Shown: positions 1-41,418 of the stretch, piece after piece | Layout: every line of letters starts with the position of its first letter | Numbering within the stretch: the first letter of the stretch is position 1 | DNA from: Blasia pusilla | Taxonomy: Eukaryota | Length of the DNA stretch: 64,000 nt | Direction: 5' to 3' | Assembly (NCBI GenBank): GCA_050084515.1 | Contig: CM114271.1 | Coordinates: forward strand, 29,698,001-29,762,000 | Notes under the pieces: generated by a model | Database searches by the model: none | What the model was told of the DNA's origin: nothing | What the model saw: the letters and a program-made list of their open reading frames with translations, nothing else | Program-made: the position numbers and the translations under genes

Positions 1-196
1 TTCTTATGGGTTTCCTAAGATCTTTGATGCGTTTGGACCAAATTTGCATAAGCTTTGTAATGCCACCTTACTTGTCCTAAACACATCTTAGGAATAAAAT
101 TTATGGTCCAAAATGTAGTCCAATCCCCAAACGCTAGTCACATTCCAAATCCGGTTCTCATATCTTTGGCAACCTCGCTTCCTAGACTAGAGTCCT

Positions 197-300
197 TGTC
201 GTGCGAATCCACATCATCATACAACATACATCGTTGACATACCATACTCACCTACATACATAACATAGACGAGAGCATCCACAAACACAAGTGTACCACT
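197..300 (-). repeat. LTR segment B, terminal copy (B2)
   Basis: 104-bp direct repeat of 673..776, about 4 mismatches by eye; ends ...GCACGACA on minus, next to the TSD. Confidence 0.9.
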
Positions 301-302
301 AT

Positions 303-670
303 TGAAATCCGTGCAAGACCTACTGTCATAAAACACATATAGAATCACATACAATCGAGCTAAACCCACTCCACAATGGGAGAATCTAGGTCGAAGCTTG
401 CGGGAACCACCATAGCCAATACCTCTACTCACTACCAAGGCTAACTCCCAATGCAACAGGCTCAACTCAAAGAACTAACTGTTCTTTGAGTGCACTCCAC
501 ACTATATCCTCCAACCTAAGAGCGGGCCCTACTGGAAAAGTCACCCTCAACAGAGTAACCCCCAACCTTATGTATGAAACCGCATCTCTACCTAGACACT
601 ACGACCCTACATAAGGTACGGCCTCTACTAGCACACTATACTCTATGACATAATCCAAATGGTCATGACA
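303..670 (-). repeat. LTR segment A, 3' copy (A2)
   Basis: Direct repeat of 9667..10038 (about 29 substitutions plus one 4-bp indel by eye); reads TGTCATGAC...GATTTCA on minus. Confidence 0.92.
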
Positions 671-672
671 AC

Positions 673-776
673 TGTCGTGCGAATCCACATCATCATACAA
701 CATACATCGGTGACATACCATATTCACCTACATACATAACATAGACAAGAGCATCCACAAACACAAGTGTACCACA
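673..776 (-). repeat. LTR segment B, PPT-adjacent copy (B1); B1+A2 (303..776) forms the canonical 3' LTR
   Basis: Starts TGTGGTACAC on minus, 2 nt after the polypurine tract; duplicate of 197..300. Confidence 0.9.
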
Positions 777-778
777 AC

Positions 779-790
779 TCGCCCCCCTAA
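779..790 (-). promoter_or_regulatory. Polypurine tract (plus-strand primer site)
   Basis: Minus strand reads TTAGGGGGGCGA-gt-TG, immediately upstream of LTR segment B1. Confidence 0.8.
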
Positions 791-954
791 CTGGCGGTTA
801 GATCCCTCTAACTCCCAAGTAGCCTTATACATCTACTACATGCTATACACCTTCGTGGGTGCACGAATCATAAGGCCGGGTGCTAGGTTTCCCCATCGTT
901 AGTCGCACATCTGTAATCCATATCATGCAAAGATCAAAACATCTACCCCTCCTA

Positions 955-1092
955 AGTACATCGAGGACAAACCCACCTTCCAGTAGGAACAACATCCATA
1001 TGTGGAGTCAAACACATCATGTGCCAACCCCTAGAACATCGATCACACACCAACATACGGGCTGCGTTACCAGCAAACCCACACAACATACA
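955..1092 (-). other. PHD finger at the C-terminus of the integrase/pol polyprotein
   Basis: CMLC...MLVCDRCSRGWHMMCLTPHMDVVPTGRWVCPRC matches C4HC3 PHD spacing and ends ORF 952..1425. Confidence 0.92.
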
Positions 1093-2249
1093 CCTCAAGC
1101 TAGCACGTATCATGGCTAAGCTTGGGTCAACAGTACCATCCACATTTGGAAGATGACATGGCGCATAATTACGCACATGGTCCTTCCAAAAAACTCCATC
1201 ACGACCCTCCAACATGAGAACTCCAGAAGCTAACACCTCGCGCACTCGTAAAATAGTGCGGCCTGCCATCACATCCAACGTTGTCTGTGCAATCTGCTGC
1301 AAATAGACATAGTCCCCCACATGGAACCTACAAATCGATGGTCGATAACCTCCACCCTGAATGGTTGCATACTGCAACGTATCCCTGTGTTGAGCACTGG
1401 CAAGATTCTCAAAGGCTGTTGGCATAACTCTCCGAAAGAGCTCTGCCTGCTAAGAACACACTCTCATCCACATCTCTGGGTCGTCAAGGTTCACCACCTT
1501 ACCAGACTCCCAACGAATTGTTGCTGGCAAGTTTGGATCTCGGCCGTCTAACAGAAAATAAGGTGAGAAGGAAGCCAAGGATGCTTGGTGGCTGAACCTA
1601 TATCCCATGGCTAACCATGGCAACTGAATATCCCAGTCTCCAAGATGCCCCTTCTGTAGGCCATACTTGCGCAATGCCCTATTCATTGTCTGAACCACAC
1701 ACTCAGCCAAATCATCCGCCTCTTGATGATCTCGAGACGTGGTCCGATGATCAATCAACGCCTTGTCACACAAGACCTGAAACTCACCATGAAACTCTGT
1801 ACCCTGGTGGGTCAGCACTTCAGCTGGTGCACCAAAATGACTAAGCACTCTATCAAGAAATATATACGCCGTTCCCTCACTTGCCTTGTCAGGTAATGCC
1901 ACCAACTCAATCCACTTGGAGAAGTGCTCCACCATCACCAACACATATCGATGATGTCGTACATTCAACGGTAACGGTCCCGCAAAGTCCACACTCCAAC
2001 GGTAACCCAACCCCATAATAGGCAAGGGGTGTAACTGTGGTGTAGGGGCATTGAATGATGCCCTCACCCGGTCACAAACCATACAACGTGACACCAATTG
2101 CTGCACCTGAGTATGCATGCCATGCCACCAAGGAGTAAGCTATACGTACGCTTTACCCCAAAATGTCCCAACTCCTCATGGGCATGTTGCACAATACACT
2201 CTCTCTGAGCCAAATGCGGCACTACTCGTACTCTACCATCCTCCCACAC
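1093..2249 (-). pseudogene. Gypsy integrase (HHCC zinc finger, rve core, C-terminal extension)
   Basis: HAHEELGH...CMVC zinc motif; WSVDFAGP, VLTHQGTEF (catalytic D appears mutated to H), FSPYFLL. Split by a frameshift and a stop. Confidence 0.92.
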
Positions 2250-2270
2250 ATGGAGAATATGTGTTCCCTC

Positions 2271-3974
2271 CTATCGATACCTCTTAGCAAGTTGAAGAAT
2301 ACGGTCTCGCTCCTTGGCACTCACTATGCCTGGCACCCTACTGGTCCGTAGGAACTCCAATACCAACACATCATCATGAATATCTCGCTGATCCGTACCA
2401 CCATCTCCAATCTTAGGATCTGAAGGTTGGCCATCTACTCTCTGACTAGAGTAAGATGTCATGTGGTCCTCCATACTAAAGTCCACCCCTAACCAACATA
2501 AAAAGGCAGATCCATGCCAACCTGGCACCATCTCCTCATCAACCTCGCCATGCCATCTAGCCCCAATTGCATCCTCTTGGCTAGTACATGGGTTCCTACT
2601 CAACCCATCAGCATCAAGGTTGGCAACTCCAGGTCTATGTACCACCTGGAAGTCATACTCCTGTAAGATAAGAGCCCACCGTGCAAGCTTCCCTGTAAGC
2701 TTGTCAGACTCCATCAACCACTTAAGCGGATGGTGATCAGTAACAAGGGTAAACTGTGTGCCAAACAAGTAACAACTAAAGTGTGCCACAGCCCACAATA
2801 CTGCCAAGCACTCTCCCTCATATGAACTATAGCGCGACTCCGCTGCATTATTCGAACGACTTGCATAGGCCACCACAAACTCCATGTGCTCATCATCATG
2901 TTGTATCAACACCGCTCCAAGTCCCAACCTACTCCAATCAGTATGTAATTGAAATGGGCGCCCTCTGATAGGTCTCCTCAAGATAGGCGCCGCCACCAAC
3001 TGGGCCTTGAGCTCCACAAAAGCTCTCTCATGATCATCTCCCCAGTGCCACTCCTGATCTGATTTCAGCAATTGGTTCAAAGGCTTTGCCATAGCACTAA
3101 ATCCCTTCACATACCTCCGATAGTAGTTCGCCAATCCCATGAATGCCCGAACTCTACTCACATCTACCGGACGAGGAATAAGTGCAATAGCCTCCTCCAC
3201 CTTTGCTTGCTGAACTCCCAAACCACCTGGATAGATCACATGACCCACGTACTCAACATCCTCATGGAAGAACTTACACTTTCCTAGATGCTAATGTAGA
3301 CCATGAGCTTTCAACCGCTCAAACACAATTTGCAAATGTATCTGATGTTCCTCCACCGTGTTACTGAACACCAAGATATCATCAATGTAACATCGAACAA
3401 AATCCAACCTTGCTAGGATCGTGTCCATCACTGTCTAAAACTCGGCATGTGCATTCTTCAACCCAAAGGGTAAGAATTTCCACTGGTACAAACAATCCTT
3501 GCCATGAGAGTTGACACCCCAAAATGCTGTCTTGGCCTTGTCACTCTCTCGAATCGGCAATTGATGGTATCTTGCCCGAAGATCCAAAGTACTGAAAATC
3601 TTTGCATGTCCCACCACATGAAAGATTTCCTCAGGTGTAGGCATGGCATACCTATCAGCCTTGGTCTGCCGATTGATAGGACGGTAATCTCCACACATCC
3701 GCCTGTCCGTGTAGTTGCCATGCACATCCTTTTAAGTAGGCATGACGGTGGCTGATGCATACTCTCCATGCGACAACTCCACTAATCCAGCCTCCAAAAG
3801 GTCCAATGTCCTACTCTGAATCAGGTCCCTCTCCATATCACTATATCGGTAGGGACGACGGAAGATTGACGAATCACTAGCCAAATCAATCTGTATATCG
3901 GGTCCAACCAAAGCACCCAACTCCTTCATGCTAAAGGCAAAACAACTCCTATAAGCACGTAGGAACTGTGTCAA
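2271..3974 (-). pseudogene. Gypsy reverse transcriptase and RNase H
   Basis: RRMCGDYRPIN, IFSTLDLRARYHQ, LPFGLKNA, YIDDILVFS (about 3363-3389), RAFMGLANYYRRYV, LHTDWS, VVAYASR, TDHHPLKWL, ADGLSR; internal stops. Confidence 0.96.
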
Positions 3975-4314
3975 GCGTCGTTTCTCACCTCCCGTAAGCT
4001 TGGGCCCAAGTAATGGCTCCTAAGTCTCCTCCATTGGCACACTAGAGGGAGGCGACGCCATTGGTCGCTACATAACCCCCTCACACGATGGTACACCCTT
4101 AGCTACACCATCATCTGAGCAAATAACTCCTCCACCAGCATGAGCAACCAACTCCACATGCCCAGTCATTACATCCCATTTACTCCAAGGATGCAAAATA
4201 CTATTCTCCTCGCCCCCAGCCGATGTCTCTACCGTCCCGGTAGCCATCGAGCTCATCACAAGGGGTGGAAGATCCATAGACATAGTCCAAAGTCGACGCT
4301 GCTCGGCCATACCA

Positions 4315-5270
4315 AGACTCAAAATCCAAGTCAAACAATTCAGGTCCATGGCCTGACCCAACACATGACGTCGTGAAGCCTCGTAAATGGAAGCAACCGT
4401 TGTCACACCAAAGAATAAATCCCATCATCGACTCTCTCTCATCAGTGTTAGGCTCCACCAACTGTCGCATATGAGAATCCCATACAAGCACGTGACCACC
4501 TTCCCTGTAGGCATGTGACGAGGGAAAACTCACAAATGTGGGTAGTGCCATCCTAGGCTGGCCCACACGGTTCACCACTACCATGGGTGATCAATCAATA
4601 ACCCTCACCACTTGAGAAAGTCGCCAAGATATCAAGATATCGCATCCCCTTTGTAAGGCAAGGATCCCGCTGCACTGCATCATATGCTCGACATAGAACC
4701 TCCCTAGGCAACAAGTTTGTCCACCAAAAGCGTGGACGATGTGCACGTGAGCCAACTCATGTTTGCATCAACAACACCGCTGGTCCAATCAAGACCGCAC
4801 CTCATGAACACTCGCCATCATCCGGTCCGAGTGTCACCCAACAATGGAACATTCTCCGAATGTAAGCCGAGCACGCGGCGTGATGAACTGAAGATGTCGT
4901 AACACCCGTAACATCTCCCAAAACAATCAAGACCTAGGGTCATGTAATCCCTCACCACGACCAGCACGCGTATGACCCTGACATGGCCATCCAGCAATCA
5001 CCAAATCCACAGGTTCAACTCTCTCAAGGCCTTACGCCCCCAACAATGCAATGTGTGACGGCAAAGCACGCTGGTACCCACAAATAGCTGATGGCGGCAA
5101 AAACTCAGGATATCTCCGCATCAACTGACCAATATTTCGGGATGAGACTCTTTGGCCGTCTCATCTTGCTCCACATACACGTATCTCCGCACAGGAATAT
5201 CGGCCTGCAACACTGCAGCCAAACCAGTGCTAATCCCACCAAAGAGATCTAACACACAAATGCCCTCCGG
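4315..5270 (-). pseudogene. C5 DNA-cytosine methyltransferase domain embedded in the Gypsy pol region
   Basis: Hand translation across frameshifts gives motif I VLDLFGGISTG (about 5225-5255), IV VDLVIAGWPCQGHTRAG..GLHDPRS*LFWEMLRVL (about 4905-5010), VI ENV (4848-4856), VIII GSRAHRPRFWWTNLLP (about 4705-4755), IX EPNTDERESMMGF, and X RRHVLGQAMD. All are in canonical order. Confidence 0.9.
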
Positions 5271-5705
5271 CGGATACTTCCATACAATGGGTGTAGTATC
5301 CAAAGGAAATAACCCAACTGGACCAGAAGTAGAAGTCCGCCGTGGGGCCTTCTCTTCCTCGTGAGGTATAGCAGCCTCACACCAAGCCTCCTGCACTAGG
5401 CGATCAGCCTCCTGCCGTAGTGCACTGCCTGAACTCCAAAGTGGCACATCCAACAATGAGGATGCCACTACTGCAAAACTAGGGACCTCCTGTACCTCCT
5501 CGTGCATAGGAGAATCCATAGCAGAAAGATTACCCTCCAAAAAGTCTCTTGGCCAAGTGACTACTCCACTAAAACCAGCCACAGATGCTAACACTGTTGG
5601 GGAAGACCCTCCTAGTCGAGCCCCATAAATAAATCTCACAGGAACCTGACTCATACGTCCATCCCCGGACTGCCAACCAGGTCTATAAGATGTTGTCTTA
5701 GTCCA

Positions 5706-6038
5706 TTAGTCCATCTGAAAACCCATCGGGTACAATACTGCTCCTCCAACTAATACATCATACGATTCGGCTGATGTGACCACTGCACGTACTCCCAACC
5801 GGGAGCTATCAGTCGCATGATCTGGTCTCATCTGTACAAACAACTTCTCCCATGTCATGAATTGAGACCTATCATTGGCTCCTCCAAGTGATGTTTGAAT
5901 CTGGAATGGGCAAGGCTCAAGCTCTGACCTCGGAATACCCAAACCAATGCATGCCGCCTTTCCCAACATTAAAGGTTGGGCACCAGAGTCTAACAAGACT
6001 CTATCTAGTCTATACACGTGTCCTGTAGGACTCACCAA
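5706..6038 (-). pseudogene. Retroviral-type aspartic protease
   Basis: VLLDSGA active-site motif and downstream YDVLVG. Confidence 0.85.
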
Positions 6039-6518
6039 TCATAATATCCCACTGCGGTTGTCCAACATACATACACCATGTGTAAGCCTCTCACGATCAA
6101 TGGCTGGCCGAGCTGGTAATGCATCCATCTTTGCCGCTGCTGCCTGCCAAGAAGCACTGTTACTCAATGCTACACCTGACATAGAGGGTCGCTCCACCAC
6201 AACACCTTCATCCACCTCAGCACGTGTAGTAGTAACACCCCCACGTTCACACAACGTGGCTGCTAGCTGAAATACAGGAGCTAAGTCAACTCCTAAAGCC
6301 ATCAGCTCCGTGGTTGAAAACAATGGGGATCCCAACACTAAAGTTGCCATCCGCAATACTGCACTGGATGTTGCATCCGTGTCTACTACACGCAATGTAG
6401 ATGCCTCAGTCCCCAATGTAGGCTCAATAGGCTGCGTAGGAACCATGGATGGAATCCTAAGCACTTCAGACAACAAGAATGACCGGGGAAGCCTAACCTG
6501 CCTCCCAACCTCACCCCT

Positions 6519-8250
6519 CTATGGGTCCAACTCCACAGTAGCACCACGTGGCTGTGACGCTCGAGTGGATCCTCTTGTAACTGCACATGATGCCTCAACT
6601 TGTGCTGCACTCACCATATAAGAGAGATCATCCCTTCCATAAGAGGTGGAAGCCCCTACTCCCGAACCTACTCTATGTTGGATACCAGCCATAGTAGCCA
6701 ACCTCTGCTCCAACTGCTCAATCCTGGTAGCCATAGTTGACTCTATCGTAGTGGTAGGGGTAGCCACCGTAGGCTCTCCAACCGCTAGTCCACCTCTACC
6801 ACCCCTATCACCTCTACCACCTCGGCCTCTCGGAGCTACTCCACCACGGCCGCGGCTTGATCTCAACTCTGGATGAAGATCAAAGCAACGCTCTCGAGGA
6901 TGACGTGGTCTCCGGCAATGATCACACTGAGTTGGGGCCGACTGAGGCCCATCCTCCAAAGTCCGTCTCCCATCCTCTTGGGAACAAAACCTCCTAACAT
7001 GATCACCTCCACATGTCCAACATGACTGTCCTTGCTGCGGGGCAGCAAATGAAGGCAATGGTCTCTGCGCAAGTGTCCCTCTAGGACCTGACTGAGGTCG
7101 TGTGTACCCCCCACAACTCCCACTACTACTACCACCACCACTACTACAAGAGTGTGAGGTGGACTGTTGAACACGAGAAGTAGTAGTTGAATCCCTACAA
7201 AACGCGGATGTCACCACTCTCTCCTCCACCATGTTAAGCTCAATCTTCTCAGATTAGAGCAAATACATGGGCCAATGTGGGTGAATCATCACGCATAAGA
7301 GTAGCATCACGTACCCTGCAGCACAACTCTTAGTCCAAGATCCCATACCAAAACTGGATTGCCTGAGCCTCAGTCACACCCTGGGTAACTGAAATCAAGC
7401 GTCGCATACGAGTGTATGCCTTACGAAGACTCTCACCAGTCTTTCGCTCAAATTCCTGAAGACTCCTCAACTTCTCTATCTTCACTCTCTGATAGTTCTT
7501 CTTCAACCTCTTGAAGAACTCTGCAACCGGCCTGAATGATGTTGGGGCACTAGTACCTCCACTAGTACCCCCACTAGTACCTCCTTGGGTACCTCCATTG
7601 GTACCCCCACTTCGGCTCGTACTCGCACCACTCAATGTCGGGCTGGCTGACACAGTAAGAGCACTACTACCACTACCACCATGGGTGATAGACACATAGC
7701 GCGGAGACCAATATTGTCTCCAAGCCTCAATCTCAGCACCATGGTCCCTCCTAAACTCATGGTAATCATCCATGGGTGGTCCCTCCAAGTGCTGAAATAA
7801 CCCCTTCCAAGCCAAGAAGGGTGTAAACAACGTGGCGTTCCGCAACATTTGCATATCACACCACGTATCAAACTCCTCAATGAAGTCCTCCAACTCAATG
7901 GTGCCCACTGCACCCGAGTATCTTCGTGGGCCCTTCATGGCCCCATATATCTCGTCCATGTCCCAAATCAATGGAGTTGCAACACTCGATAACAACGTAG
8001 AAGACTCGGTGTTTGGAATACCCCCGTCCTCCTCTTCATCAATCGTCGGAAGTGGAAAAGGTAGCCGATACTTCAATCCACTCCGTGTAAAACCACCAAT
8101 GTCCGTACCACGGTCCCCAACCAAACCACCAGAAAGCTCCGTGATGACCAACGCCGATGCCGCACCACCACCAAATCACCACCACTAAGTAACCAAGTGA
8201 CGTCGATGTCGTTGTACTATTTTAGCTCTGCTAGCTATGGGTGTAGGCAA
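6519..8250 (-). pseudogene. gag (capsid-like region plus two CCHC zinc knuckles)
   Basis: ORFs 7330..8151 and 6519..7232; CWTCGGDHVRRFC and CDHCRRPRHPRERC followed by an RGG-rich stretch. The start is approximate. Confidence 0.82.
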
Positions 8251-9652
8251 CCTAACCTATATCACCACAAGAAGCCTCCCACGGTCTACTGGTCATCACT
8301 CCAGCCTCACTACCGGTAGCACACAGGAGTAAAATTACTCTGGAAATCAGCGTCAACCCTAACAATGGGCGCCCAAGCAAGAAGCAACGATGGAGGGGAT
8401 CCAAACACAAGAAGTCCAACGACAACCCTCCAATCGCAAATGGAAATCAAGGTAACACAATCCACCAAACGTGGCGCCCCCTGAATCCACAGAACGCACC
8501 ACACAATTCTAACGCAATAGCTACTCCGCCGCTGGTCGATGACGTGCTAGTTGCACTCGCAGCACCTGAAAATATCACCTGCATGGAGAGGCTACACCGT
8601 ACTATGCGCTAGAGGTCCATCAACCAAAAACCCAAGATGCATAAAGTGCCTAACACATCTCCGAACAGCACCAAATGATCTACACTAGTGTGTACACTAG
8701 CATAGTTAAGAACTCAGCAGTTAAGCGTCTTCAAGGCAGAATAGCCCAAATATGGGTGACCGGTTATGCAACACTCAACTCAAAAATCCTGCAAAAACTG
8801 CCTCACGCCCAAGCAAGCAGCTTGCTTGCTTGGTCCTTGCTCCTTGCTCCTTACTCCGCCTCACGCCCACTCGCCCCGAGCTACCACGAGTTGCCTCAAA
8901 GCCTCAAAACGTCGAGACATGCCCCTATCGCCACGCTTCGCCATGCTTCCCTATGGAGAGAAGCCCAACCAGGGTTCCCCCAATGGGATAGGCATCTCCA
9001 ACAACGGACGAGTCACCAACCGACCAGCCCCTTCGATCTGCTGTCCACCATAGCCAGACCTTGAACTAGTCCGTGAAATTTTGATCAGCAATTACTCCAC
9101 AAATCCTCAACTAAAATTGAATCTATTTCAACCAGAATACAATTGTCCACCATAGTTATCTCTTTACAAAAAATCAGCTACAACCGAGCTTTGTACTCTG
9201 AGCTAAAAATCAGACAAACTTGCTGTCCATACATCTCCAGAATCACAAATCTGACAGCGCTTCCGCCCACATTCATGCACACACAAATCCGCAACGCTCC
9301 ACACACTCAAGCAAATAGCTTCACATGAGATCACAATACAGGTAGCAACAGGAATGTCTCACCCAATCTGGATGAACTTCAACAGAGCTTCCGCACTCCA
9401 AGCTCTCCACATCAGAAAACCGTCGAACACGAACCAGAATCTTCAATCCTTGATAACTTCCAACTCCCTTGACGAAATCCGGCGATCTAAAGCGCGTTGG
9501 AAAGCTCTCAGCAAGGCACTTCTTTCTCAACCAACCTCGCACCAGATTCCTACCTCCAACATAGGCCACAAGCCACGAACATCCACGGCTGAGTACACAA
9601 TCAGCCCTAACCAGATCCTATTGATCCGCGATCGAAGCTACCATCGATCTAC

Positions 9653-9666
9653 GTTAGTTCTTTGAG
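9653..9666 (-). promoter_or_regulatory. Primer-binding site of probable self-priming type
   Basis: CTCAAAGAACTAAC directly follows the LTR end ...TTTCA. It lacks the TGG start of tRNA PBSs and is the reverse complement of LTR-internal GTTAGTTCTTTGAG. Confidence 0.7.
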
Positions 9667-10038
9667 TGAAATCTGTGGAAGACCTACTGTCATAAAACAC
9701 GTATAGAACCACATACAATTGAGCCAAACCCACTCCACGATGGGAGAATCCAGTTCGACGCTTACGGGAACCACCATAGCCAATAGCTCTACTCACTACC
9801 AAGGCTAACTCCCAACGCAACACGCTCAACTTAAAGAACTAACTGTTCTTTGAATGCACTCCACACTATATCCTCCAACCTAAGAGCGGGCCCTACTGGA
9901 AAAGTCACCCTCAATGGAGTAACCCCCAACCCTATGTATAAAACCGCATCTCTACCTAGACACTATGGCCCTCCCTACATAAGATACAACCTCTACTAGC
10001 ACACTATACTCTACAACATAATCCGTATGGTCATGACA
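9667..10038 (-). repeat. 5' LTR, segment A only (A1)
   Basis: Direct repeat of 303..670; TG...CA termini; followed by the PBS; no B segment upstream. Confidence 0.92.
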
Positions 10039-11189
10039 TCCTCTCAAGTCTTGGTTTAGGTTTGGTTCCGGTTTCCTAATCGCAACCATAAACGCATGAA
10101 ACGCTCAACCTTGTTTGCGTCTCATATCTTGTGTCTCCAACGCAAACCATCCTAGCGTGAGCCCACTAAAGTTCTGATGTTCCGCTTAGCGCTTTTTGGT
10201 TATGAGGGTCGCGACACATAGGCTCTGTCCCTTAGTTTTTTCGGAAAGTATTTTGGTTGTGTGGTGTCTAAAAAAATAGAGTCCTTATATAGTTTGGATT
10301 CAAAATATACATCAATCAAATATAAATTTTTAACTCAAAATTGGATTCTGATCCGATATTTTTATTTGGTATTTTCTTAAAATAGTTTCAGATTAACTTT
10401 TATAAAACTCAAAAAAAAGTAGTGGTTATTGAATCAACTCATTTACCTAAAAATGTAGATCTACCTTTAATTTCTCCAAATTGATAAGACAAAATAACAA
10501 ATCTTTGATTTTTTTTATCTTTCTCAACAAAAAGAAAATTTTCTCTTCTATTAAAAATAAATTTTCAATGAAATAAAAAATCTTGATATTTTTAAAAAAA
10601 AATTATTCCTACTTCTTAAATAATATCTTCCATTTTTTTATACAACCATGTAACACAAATAATAATAATTTAGTCACTTTCTTTTGTCTTAATTCTATTA
10701 GGTCAAACAAATAACTATGAAGAATATCTAAATATAAAATTTTAGATGGAATGGGAAATCACAATAATAGAAAAATAAAAATCTCAATTTAGGATTTCTA
10801 TTTTTTATTTATTCTTAAAAATGGTTTCCAATTATTAGGAATACTAATTATTCTCTTTATATCATGAATTATTAGATAGTAATATCTCAAGTCCATCCAA
10901 TGATGCACGATTTTTTTGTGAGAAAACATAATATGATGAAATCACTAAAATGTATTAGAAATCTTGGAGATACAAAGTGGTCGTCCGTGCGCTCACAGAA
11001 GAGCTTCGATGGAACCTAAAAATGGAGATAATCTGACATACGAGAATACGCGACCGTTGCGGCTCCTAAATTTTTCACTACTCGAGAAACTAGGGTTTTT
11101 TACCTATTTTTCTTCATTTCTATTTATAGAAAATTTTGTCATGGGCTTCAATTTTGGATCCCCGCGTCACATTAGAGTGCCCTGTATCC

Positions 11190-38591: not shown

Positions 38592-41418
38592 GGACATTAA
38601 AGGTCCCGGGTAATAAGTGCTTGGCATGAGGTTGGAAGCTCTTGTCCGCACATGAAGCCCGAGACTACTTACTGCCCATTCCAACTCGAATGGCCTCCAT
38701 GCAAGGACAGGAAATTGCGACCCACTCAAAGCATAGCGCTCTCCGCTGTGTTCCAGTGAACGAAGGATTCCACGATTCTGTCCAAGATTGGTTTCATGGT
38801 ACGGAGCCTTTAACGCCCCAACCGTGTAAACCGAATCTCCTAATATTTTCATTTGCAGTATTACCCATCTCAATATCTGTCTAATCACTCTTGGGCACGG
38901 TGCGAGCATTAGTATTAATTAAATAACCTCGCACGAAAATAGTTACATTGAAAAATCTGAATGATAAGTGGAAATTATGCCGTTATCTTAGTGGGAAATT
39001 TTAGGAATTGAGAAATATGCATATATAAATTAGTCCATGCACACTTAGAAATGATTATCCTAAATTGTGTGACTGAATAATTTAATTTACCTCCAAAACC
39101 AATCCCCCAAGTGATCTAAGATAGATTACAAAATGTGATGATCGGGATGAGTATGACAATATGGATGATCATGTTAATAATATAAACTAGTGGACAGCTC
39201 ATGCCATGCACGAGAGCAAAGAGATTAATGATATTACACACAACTTTTTCTCATTACCTCAAATATGGGGAATATCTATCCGGTTGTCTGGTTATCACAT
39301 GTCAAGCAAATGTGTACTTGTAAATCAAGAAGTCACTCTCCAATAAGAACATAGCTTTTATTGATTTTGTTCTTAAATAAATTTTGTTATGAATTTCAAT
39401 AGTAATTATTGCATAGTATCCTTTGATTTTCAATGAAACATATAAATATCTAACTACAAGAGGCATTTATTGCGTATAATCGGGCAACAAGATTCGGGAT
39501 GGGAAAAAAAATCAATTTCATAAATAAATATCAAAGCCCCTTGCATATCAGCAAATATCAGGGCTAGGCTAGAGGGGCTGGTGGTTTAGTTCGGACAAGG
39601 TAGGTTGGGTTTGGGCCCTACTCCACACAAGAGTTTTGCACTTCGGGAGGGCTAAGCTGCCCCTATAGGCAATGAATGCCTGCAAACGGATGTTAATGGC
39701 TTTTGGATTTTCAAACACCTCTCTTGGTAACAAATGGCATGTTCGGCCTTGTCTTGACTAGTCTGTCCCATGGACGGACAAGTTCTTTTTTTTTGCAACC
39801 ATGGGGGTTTGTTGTATTATGTATCAAATAGTTGTTGGGGATTCAATAAATATCAAATATTACCGTATTATTCTATAAATGTCAAAAAAGTACCAATTTT
39901 AGGGGAAAAAAACTACACATACCTTAATCTTACATGAACTAGTTTTGAAATTTGAAACCTTGTATGAATATTTGTGTGATGCTCTTAATAGCACTTATGA
40001 TGTGTTCACTTTTTTCAATATTAAACAAAAAAACTCATGTGAGAATATCCTCATAAACAATGTCATGTAAACACGCATTCTTGATCACATGTAATCTCAA
40101 TTCCTACTATTCTATGGTCCAAACTCTTAGTATCTACTCTCGATAAGACTATACATAGTTTTCCATGAAATACAGATATTTGTAAGTAAATAATATATCC
40201 ACTATATGTAGTATTTCACTTTTAGACTTATTAATAGTCATGGCCGAAGCAAGATGGGCATGAAATCAAAATCTCATCAAATCAACGGATAAATTGAAGC
40301 TCGACATTATCAAAAGAATTTTTGGAATGAAATCTTGTCTCTAATGTTACTTTGTGTCATGATCTTAGCATCTAAAAAATTTGCAAAAATCTTAGAACCA
40401 CGAATCAAGAGTCGTTTGCTTGAACCTTCAAACCATTCATATTTCTCAATAACTTTATTGGAGCATCAATATCAAGGTAAGACGATAAGGAGGTATTTTG
40501 AATGGAAAACTTGTATGAAAAAACTTTGTAGGGTAAATATGACTCATTCCATCATTTGGAACAAAGTTAGAACTTAAGTAGGTGCGTGATTGCGAATTAA
40601 TGCAAATATTGATCTTTAAGTTAAAATATATCAATAGTATTTTGTAGATTAAATTTATTTAAAATAGGTTGAGGTGCATTCTTACCTCTCCAATGCATGG
40701 TGATATGATTGCAACATTCATTTCATCAACATTTTGTTTCCTAGAGTCAAAATAGCGATATTCCTCACAAAGATGACGTCATTAAAACTTTGTAGATCAT
40801 ACTGATATTATAGTGTCAATGAGGCCACTTATATTATCATCCTTGTAGATAATGTCTAATAGTACTTCACTGGTGTCTTCTACTTAATTGAAATAAATAT
40901 GTCCATTGCGTGCTCCAACTTTCAATAACCAATTTGTAGAATCTTGTTGATGAAAAGACTCATCACCTTTTAAACTCTCATGTTTGCTACTGGTTTCCCA
41001 ACCCTTACATAAGACCATAAATAAGATCAATAAATAATAGCTCATATAATTTCTGGTCATTCTCCATGATGAGTAACAAGAAGGACTCAAAAAAAATCAA
41101 CAAAAAAAACAATCAATTTTCCACCAAATAAAAAATGTTAGAGGAGCTCAAGTCCTATAATGAATCCTCTAAGATCCATGTACCTTTGTCCCTCTAGTCT
41201 TTGTCTATATTTCGGACTCATTCTAGAGAATCGGACGCGCTTCCATCCTAGTGTGAGCCCACTAGATTTATGATGTTCCACTTTTATCCTTGAGACGCCC
41301 AATAAGGCTCGCACTTTATTTAGAGCTAATGTCTTATTCTAGATACTCCGACGTGCTTCCATCCTCGTGTGAGCCCACAAGAGTTTTGATGTTTTGTATT
41401 GTCATATGTTTGGCTATA

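Follow-up and report, generated by a model that had tools for sequence, protein, structure and literature searches.

Permuted terminal repeats in a Gypsy family carrying a DNA methyltransferase point to integration through a palindrome inside the long terminal repeat

A stretch of 64,000 nucleotides from Blasia pusilla (GenBank assembly GCA_050084515.1, contig CM114271.1, positions 29,698,001 to 29,762,000; the whole stretch is hereafter called the window) contains a Gypsy-type long terminal repeat (LTR) retrotransposon with split and permuted direct repeats. Read on the minus strand, the element runs A1, internal coding region (int), B1, A2 and B2, and its physical ends coincide with the two halves of a palindrome at the B|A boundary within its own LTR. 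Textbook LTR retrotransposons and retroviruses integrate the termini of linear cDNA, and LTR-joined circles count as dead ends. The chromosomal copies of the family described here cannot arise by such terminus integration. We suggest that the DDE integrase uses the LTR-internal palindrome halves, and not the termini made by reverse transcriptase (RT), and that the cDNA ends are joined head to tail. We assign this reading a probability of about 0.65.

The coordinates of the element were obtained from a minus-strand reading combined with a repeat finder (Table 1). According to the repeat finder, A1 and A2 are 93% alike over 300 nt and 89% alike over 66 nt, and B1 and B2 are 97% alike over 103 nt. 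The physical ends TGTCATG...CACGACA form an inverted repeat matching at 6 of 7 bases, and the 2-nt spacer found between B1 and A2 is absent at those ends. The order A1...B1-A2-B2 and its coordinates, spacers and flanks had been proposed in the initial annotation of the window and were all reproduced to the base. The copy is decayed, with numerous in-frame stops and frameshifts, and the open reading frames (ORFs) on the minus strand are pieces of one gag-pol. No second copy of A or B exists elsewhere within the 64-kb window. A search of the window with both flanks for a paralogous empty site returned nothing except an unrelated short repeat at 41.2 kb. Over 61 nt, the 5' flank at 10121-10181 resembles positions 41217-41277 and 41333-41393 (61-85%), probably as a small dispersed repeat.

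Relatives were collected by a protein-guided scan of metagenome contigs, which gave 63 loci. For the analysis of 3' ends, 36 rows were compared, comprising the window and the 35 loci holding the region just before the polypurine tract (PPT); L006 and L041 were merged as one insertion, as were L033 and L034. The 3' end PPT-gt-B-NN-A-(g/a)t-B is present in 12 of the 36 rows, which represent 10 independent insertions and include a shortened B2 in L033/34. In 16 rows (12 insertions, 2 ambiguous), unrelated DNA sets in directly after a single B. The ambiguous cases are L007, which is the same locus as L004 through the end of B1 and retains the spacer, and L058, which is similar in appearance. One row (L059) continues through B-NN-A to the contig end, and the remaining seven are unclassifiable, with B interrupted or the contig ending. 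All visible 5' termini (19 rows, 17 insertions) begin with T(G/A)TCATGAC right after unrelated DNA, and no B-like match lies upstream of A in any of the 17. Perfect 4-bp duplications flank 8 of the 11 insertions with both ends visible (L001 ATTA, L005 TACA, L006 TCTC, L015 TACA, L049 ATGC, L052 AAGG, L061 TTCA and the window AGGA); L030 and L042 match at 3 of 4 positions and L055 has no duplication. Furthermore, nine DNA contigs of run X4 match the element up to 196/197 and have unlike flanks beyond. Because the same termini and the 4-bp duplications recur across relatives, the permuted ends are the true ends of integrated family members. The split A...B-A-B layout is confirmed as a family trait, and neither a single aberrant copy nor faulty assembly accounts for it. 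The initial annotation had named recurrent A-int-B-A-B copies bounded by TGTCATG...CACGACA with duplications as the outcome that would support it, and such copies were recovered. The opposite outcome, ordinary B+A repeats at both ends of most copies, is absent given that no 5' end carries B, and the concern about a chance 4-bp match is countered by the eight perfect duplications.

The spacer between B and A measures 2 nt in all 13 rows showing the boundary (gc in 6, ac in 4, gt in 2 and at in 1). These variants are all transitions of GC within CAG/CTG, and the core ACA-NN-TGTCA is always retained. L035 and L039, which are distant relatives, share only 58-60% protein identity across RT and RNase H, and the rest of their A is unalignable with the window family. 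Both carry CACGACA-g(t/c)-TGTCACG, which gives an overall boundary core of CACGACA-NN-TGTCA(T/C)G. A self-repeat search found no terminal repeats in L035 and L039, and both contigs break inside A; a scan of viral_contigs with ORF2 of L035 found no relatives. The coincidence of the integrated ends with the internal B|A palindrome, as initially noted for the window copy, thus extends to relatives with a conserved CA-NN-TG. Integration via the LTR-internal palindrome is well supported by these sequence comparisons.

The PPT is conserved in 36 of 36 rows and is followed by GT-TG in 34. The candidate primer binding site (PBS), a 14-mer, is the exact complement of A2 479-466 (14/14), the 3' arm of a hairpin at 490-466. 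The 5' arm has the same sequence as bases 1-10 of the PBS-like site. In L052, the corresponding site is likewise complementary to A at 14 of 14 positions, with two compensatory changes compared to the window, and the complementary stretch lies about 165-190 nt into A. Complementarity and compensatory changes suggest a candidate site for Tf1-like self-priming. A tRNA-type PBS was rejected because the site does not begin with TGG.

Raw RNA reads of runs X21 and X22, which share the species label of the best-matching DNA run, were placed at 85% likeness and thus sample the whole family rather than the window copy alone. Sense depth over the PPT, B1 and the start of A2 reaches 91-156 in X21 and 170-221 in X22, falls toward the end of A2 and amounts to 0.7-6 over B2. 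In X21, 25 reads span the transition between the A terminus and the PBS leader. B1 therefore belongs to the transcribed U3, and B2 has next to no transcription. Given the positions of the PPT and the PBS-like site and the RNA coverage of B1 and A2 but not of B2, the LTR of reverse transcription is gt-B-NN-A (B+A), so integrated copies are circularly permuted relative to the B+A cDNA. Two other delimitations were rejected. If A+B were the LTR of reverse transcription, B should follow A in 5' copies, which none shows, and B2 is left uncovered by RNA. An A-only LTR (TG...CA) with B as a piece of the 3' untranslated region is at odds with duplications that flank A1 and B2, not A1 and A2. A few RNA reads with an additional A skip 98 nt (window 727-826) that comprise the PPT and the first part of B1, and loose RNA ends at 779 continue into diverged B-like sequence. 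Such reads (window 727-826 and 251-826) probably stem from an expressed subfamily with a different B.

The joint between A2 and B2 reads CA-GT-TG, or CA-AT-TG by transition, in 8 of 10 insertions, which equals the end of A, the two bases following the PPT and B. The other two joints are imprecise, with one additional nucleotide in L004 (~3050) and a 20-nt filler in L006/L041 (10838-10859). The filler partly repeats the end of A and finishes like a PPT, and both joints look like end-joining scars. As length varies at this joint while the templated B1/A2 spacer never changes in length, the A2/B2 joint appears to be made anew at each insertion. The pattern fits cDNA termini joined head to tail. 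Both the definition of the LTR as B+A from PBS and PPT and the interpretation of the A2/B2 joint as abutted cDNA ends had been put forward in the initial annotation; the former agrees with RNA coverage and the latter now includes the GT following the PPT. No columns differ consistently between the B1 and B2 sets or between the A1 and A2 sets (for A, 0 of 398 columns), which indicates that the repeats are remade from one template in each cycle and argues against DNA-level transposition of the whole unit. B1 is not closest to its own B2 in the B tree, which is star-like and based on a short B.

We infer the cleavage chemistry and the intermediate from these sequence patterns. Reverse transcription would yield a linear cDNA of the form gt-B-NN-A-PBS...PPT-gt-B-NN-A (BA-int-BA). 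The integrase would recognize the inverted half-sites TGTC(A/G)TG, which stand back to back within the LTR like a pre-joined pair of ends, and nick after CA on both strands. The resulting recessed CA-3'OH ends with 2-nt 5' overhangs would resemble processed retroviral ends. Joining of the CA-3'OH ends to the target 4 bp apart would entail the loss of the 2-nt spacer, and head-to-tail ligation of the RT-made termini would generate A2-GT-B2. The predicted chromosomal outcome is A-PBS...PPT-gt-B-NN-A-gt-B, or a shorter A...B. One candidate intermediate is a 2-LTR circle; another is a cDNA, linear or open-circular, that is cut at the PBS-proximal palindrome and whose own ends are joined afterwards, either through host end-joining after strand transfer, through an end-to-end jump of RT or through circle formation. 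Purely as speculation, the PBS-proximal LTR might become double-stranded first during plus-strand transfer, so that the integrase would commit to its palindrome.

Several observations weigh against integration through the internal palindrome as outlined above. No extrachromosomal intermediate, cleavage product or new insertion has been observed, the relatives were drawn from metagenome contigs, and all close copies are degraded with no ORF of at least 500 amino acids. A 2-LTR circle would contain the palindrome twice in identical form, and cleavage of the PPT-proximal copy predicts A-B-A-int-B, which occurs in none of the 17 5' ends. An extra asymmetry must be assumed because 10 B-A-B insertions stand against no such 5' end, and a random choice of palindrome on a 2-LTR circle is unlikely. 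The integration route from a circle proposed in the initial annotation is therefore retained in its use of the palindrome, while the 2-LTR circle becomes only one candidate intermediate. RNA reads also show a back-joint 637>349 (3 + 7 reads; from A ~321 to A ~33, a step that goes back 289) and a pile of 31 molecule ends at 509 (runs X21 and X22), neither of which is seen in the DNA contigs compared.

The 16 rows with a single B beside the flank are a further complication, and the initial annotation had not foreseen that copies of the form A-int-B would be numerous. In these copies the target duplication adjoins B, with five perfect cases and two matching at 3 of 4 positions. Single-B copies cannot replicate. 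An A-int-B structure could originate from a one-LTR intermediate, from cutting of both LTR palindromes in linear cDNA or from a later deletion between B1 and B2. The observed copies may thus represent primary products, B1/B2 deletions or collapsed short-read assemblies. Ages were compared by FastTree terminal branches across the 2 kb before the PPT, with L007 and L058 included and one row per duplicated insertion. Median branch lengths were 0.067 for single-B and 0.045 for B-A-B copies (12 and 9 copies, respectively; Mann-Whitney p = 0.17).

Three other explanations compete with integration through the internal palindrome. For the window in isolation, where just one copy is present and the probability of a 4-bp flank match by chance is 1/256, one might suppose that an ordinary Gypsy copy was rearranged once or misassembled. 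This explanation is already refuted by the recurrence of layout, duplications and termini across relatives from other assemblies, including the lack of a canonical B-A 5' LTR among 17 insertions, the palindrome in distant relatives and the X4 contigs with unlike flanks. Movement at the DNA level is highly improbable. The integrase would act as a transposase on chromosomal copies without reverse transcription in each cycle, in the manner of Ginger transposons, which have TGT ends and 4-bp duplications. The terminal inverted repeats and 4-bp duplications of the family are compatible with such movement, as is the fact that A-int-B and A-B units are each bounded by identical end motifs. Yet the repeats lack the fixed B1/B2 or A1/A2 differences across copies, as expected if reverse transcription starts from one template, the family is transcribed in sense over PPT-B1-A2, and the PPT and PBS have been maintained, the latter with compensatory changes.

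A replication mode resembling that of DIRS or PAT elements is unlikely, though less so than the other two. The A2-B2 segment would be copied from read-through RNA, and template jumps from one split repeat to another would produce circular or terminally redundant cDNA, which the integrase would insert at the B/A boundary. Low RNA depth (3-6) does reach B2, and the order A1-int-B1-A2-B2 is that of PAT, Ngaro and related tyrosine-recombinase elements according to excerpts of two studies (PMC4157794, PMC5890265). RNA depth drops about 20- to 40-fold at the A2/B2 border though, and the placement of the PPT right before B1 and of a PBS-like site right after A1 suits ordinary LTR-type synthesis. The two imprecise A2/B2 joints among ten contrast with the constant length of the templated B1/A2 spacer. 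In addition, no tyrosine recombinase was matched (see below) and 4-bp duplications exist. To our knowledge, tyrosine-recombinase elements make no target duplication.

The proposed route through the internal palindrome has parallels among other DDE enzymes. Retroviral integrases, such as those of foamy virus and HIV-1, can cleave the palindromic LTR-LTR junction of 2-LTR circles. The similarity lies in a CA...TG palindrome nicked after CA on both strands to give two processed ends. In retroviruses, joining of the LTR termini creates the palindrome and the circle is largely a side product, whereas the palindrome of the window family is LTR-internal, inherited, equipped with a 2-nt spacer and apparently the sole site used. 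Insertion sequences of the IS3/IS30 type integrate from a circle with abutted ends. These also present a DDE enzyme with two ends a few bp apart, but they are bacterial DNA elements without reverse transcription and no sequence relation is claimed.

Split repeats in elements with a Gypsy-type pol have been described before. KnitGypsy-Dnmt3 from Klebsormidium nitens carries a Gypsy-type pol including a cytosine DNA methyltransferase (DNMT), and the legend of Fig. 4c of that study assigns it a DIRS-type repeat structure (A-coding-B-A-B) with domains typical of Gypsy (de Mendoza et al. 2018, PMC5890265). The A...B-A-B architecture in Gypsy-DNMT elements is thus already published and not new here, a precedent of which the initial annotation was unaware. 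Compared by description only, the two elements share the A-coding-B-A-B repeats and the DNMT-bearing Gypsy pol. They differ in that KnitGypsy-Dnmt3 has a charophyte host, whereas the closest named proteins of the window element come from liverworts; no Klebsormidium protein is named among the matches listed for the element. The main text on KnitGypsy-Dnmt3 does not mention duplications, a palindrome, PBS/PPT, a mechanism or PHD. As to an integrase mechanism for such repeats, searches of the literature, with thin coverage of subscription journals, turned up nothing beyond this 2018 figure legend. PAT-like, Ngaro, TOC and kangaroo elements are described in excerpts of PMC4157794 as having split direct repeats A1-internal-B1-A2-B2 with B1A2 abutting. 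Repeat order and the abutting internal pair are shared with the window element, which differs from these tyrosine-recombinase elements, described with no DDE integrase, by its rve integrase and 4-bp duplications. For the priming step, self-priming has been described in Tf1/Sushi elements, and plant Tcn1 is predicted to use it (Neumann et al. 2019, PMC6317226, in part). The PBS is complementary to the element's own LTR and not to a tRNA 3' end in both cases, and the window lineage differs by a PHD finger and the lack of a chromodomain match in the ORFs analysed.

Slightly short of even odds, we consider that a whole lineage of DDE-integrase LTR elements, found here in liverworts and perhaps identical with the Gypsy-DNMT elements of Klebsormidium, obligatorily integrates via an inherited CA-NN-TG palindrome inside the LTR, with head-to-tail joining of its RT-made termini before or after that step. 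Split repeats would then predate the tyrosine recombinase or be independent of it, and the lineage would be a living link between Gypsy and DIRS-like elements. The integration route has a bearing on how DIRS-like repeat structures arose. If correct, it would widen the natural repertoire of DDE integrases, offer a simple system for the study of junction cleavage and represent a natural, productive version of the discarded circle-junction route of retroviral integration. It would also suggest, in concrete and testable terms, where the split direct repeats of tyrosine-recombinase retrotransposons came from. Gypsy elements carrying a DNMT, previously known from a charophyte, are now extended to land plants, with the PHD finger as a likely targeting module. 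Standard LTR finders will place wrong boundaries on such elements, and A-int-B copies will pass for truncated ones.

The coding region assigns the element to Ty3/gypsy. The intact, more distant relative L035 encodes gag, protease and a C5 DNA methylase (PF00145, E 1.8e-13) in ORF1 and RT-RNaseH-H2C2-rve-PHD (PHD E 2.6e-10) in ORF2, with the domain order Asp_protease, RVT_1, RT_RNaseH, H2C2 and rve. The L035 methyltransferase, at residues 940-1086 of ORF1, is intact with motifs LFAGIG, PCQ and ENV. The L035 domains were placed onto the window element by tblastn, with the methylase in the gap of ~1.7 kb between protease and RT that opens with VLDLFGGISTGLAA. The closest named proteins among the matches listed are from the liverworts Marchantia, Calypogeia and Riccia; Marchantia polymorpha has proteins with the identical DNMT fusion, annotated only as hypothetical. 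No tyrosine recombinase (Phage_integrase) and no chromodomain were matched in the window ORFs or the two ORFs of L035. The element initially annotated as a DDE-integrase Gypsy is indeed of this type, given its rve core and the lack of a tyrosine recombinase match. The order PR-RT-RNaseH-IN (PR, protease; IN, integrase) with an rve (DDE) integrase and the short 4-bp target-site duplication are those of Ty3/gypsy (Metaviridae). Complete identical LTRs as physical ends, with a duplication at the termini defined by PPT and PBS, are absent. The split direct repeats A1-B1-A2-B2 follow the DIRS order, with a DDE integrase in place of a tyrosine recombinase. Both the C5 methyltransferase within the polyprotein and the A-coding-B-A-B repeat order are those of Gypsy-DNMT elements. 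Chromoviruses carry a chromodomain at the integrase C-terminus, where the window element has a PHD finger. The window feature is a decayed Ty3/gypsy copy of a lineage in which a DNMT separates protease from RT and the integrase is followed by a PHD finger. The PHD finger is a possible chromatin-reading targeting module, and an excerpt of PMC6673714 describes such fingers as widespread in retrotransposons.

Table 1. Features of the permuted Gypsy element and its flanks, in window coordinates.
Feature	Position	Strand	Remarks
Whole integrated element	197..10038	minus	9,842 bp; A1-PBS-leader-gag-PR-DNMT-RT-RNaseH-IN-PHD-PPT-gt-B1-gt-A2-at-B2
Upstream target-site duplication, 4 bp	10039..10042	minus	AGGA (TCCT on the plus strand)
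A1, 5' terminal repeat	9667..10038	minus	372 nt; first bases TGTCATG, last TTTCA; preceded by no B
PBS-like 14-mer	9653..9666	minus	CTCAAAGAACTAAC; immediately 3' of A1
gag region	6519..8175	minus	weak Retrotrans_gag match; CCHC knuckle within 6519-7253
Aspartic protease region	5706..6038	minus	LLDSGAQ; located by homology to L035 ORF1
C5 cytosine DNA methyltransferase remnant	about 4296..5275	minus	between PR and RT; motif I VLDLFGGISTGLAA; frameshift-broken; by tblastn
Reverse transcriptase	about 3291-4100	minus	scattered across several frames
RNase H	2271-3290	minus	RT_RNaseH E 2e-35
Integrase, H2C2 zinc finger and rve (DDE) core	1450..2139	minus	Pfam; rve E 3.7e-11
PHD finger, C-terminus of integrase ORF	958..1092	minus	PF00628, E 4.9e-10; stop codon 952-954
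Polypurine tract (PPT)	779..788	minus	AGGGGGGCGA; then GT (778-777), then B1
B1, internal B copy	673..776	minus	first bases TGTGGTAC, last CACGACA; transcribed
Palindrome CACGACA-gt-TGTCATG, B1/A2 boundary	664..679	minus	each half identical to one physical end
Spacer gt between B1 and A2	671..672	minus	2 nt
A2	303..670	minus	368 nt; holds hairpin 490-466
Joint at between A2 (..TTTCA) and B2	301..302	minus	relatives mostly GT, the bases after the PPT
B2, extra terminal B copy	197..300	minus	CACGACA end abuts target duplication; RNA cover almost nil
Downstream target-site duplication, 4 bp	193..196	minus	AGGA

Two compositional features of the element were also observed. Across window positions 1-10000, the plus strand has a GC skew of -0.23 to -0.31 and an AT skew of +0.06 to +0.21, and the sense strand of the element is rich in G and T and poor in C, in contrast to the flanks. 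Within gag, five tandem 12-nt units at window positions 7541-7611 encode a GGTS-type repeat.

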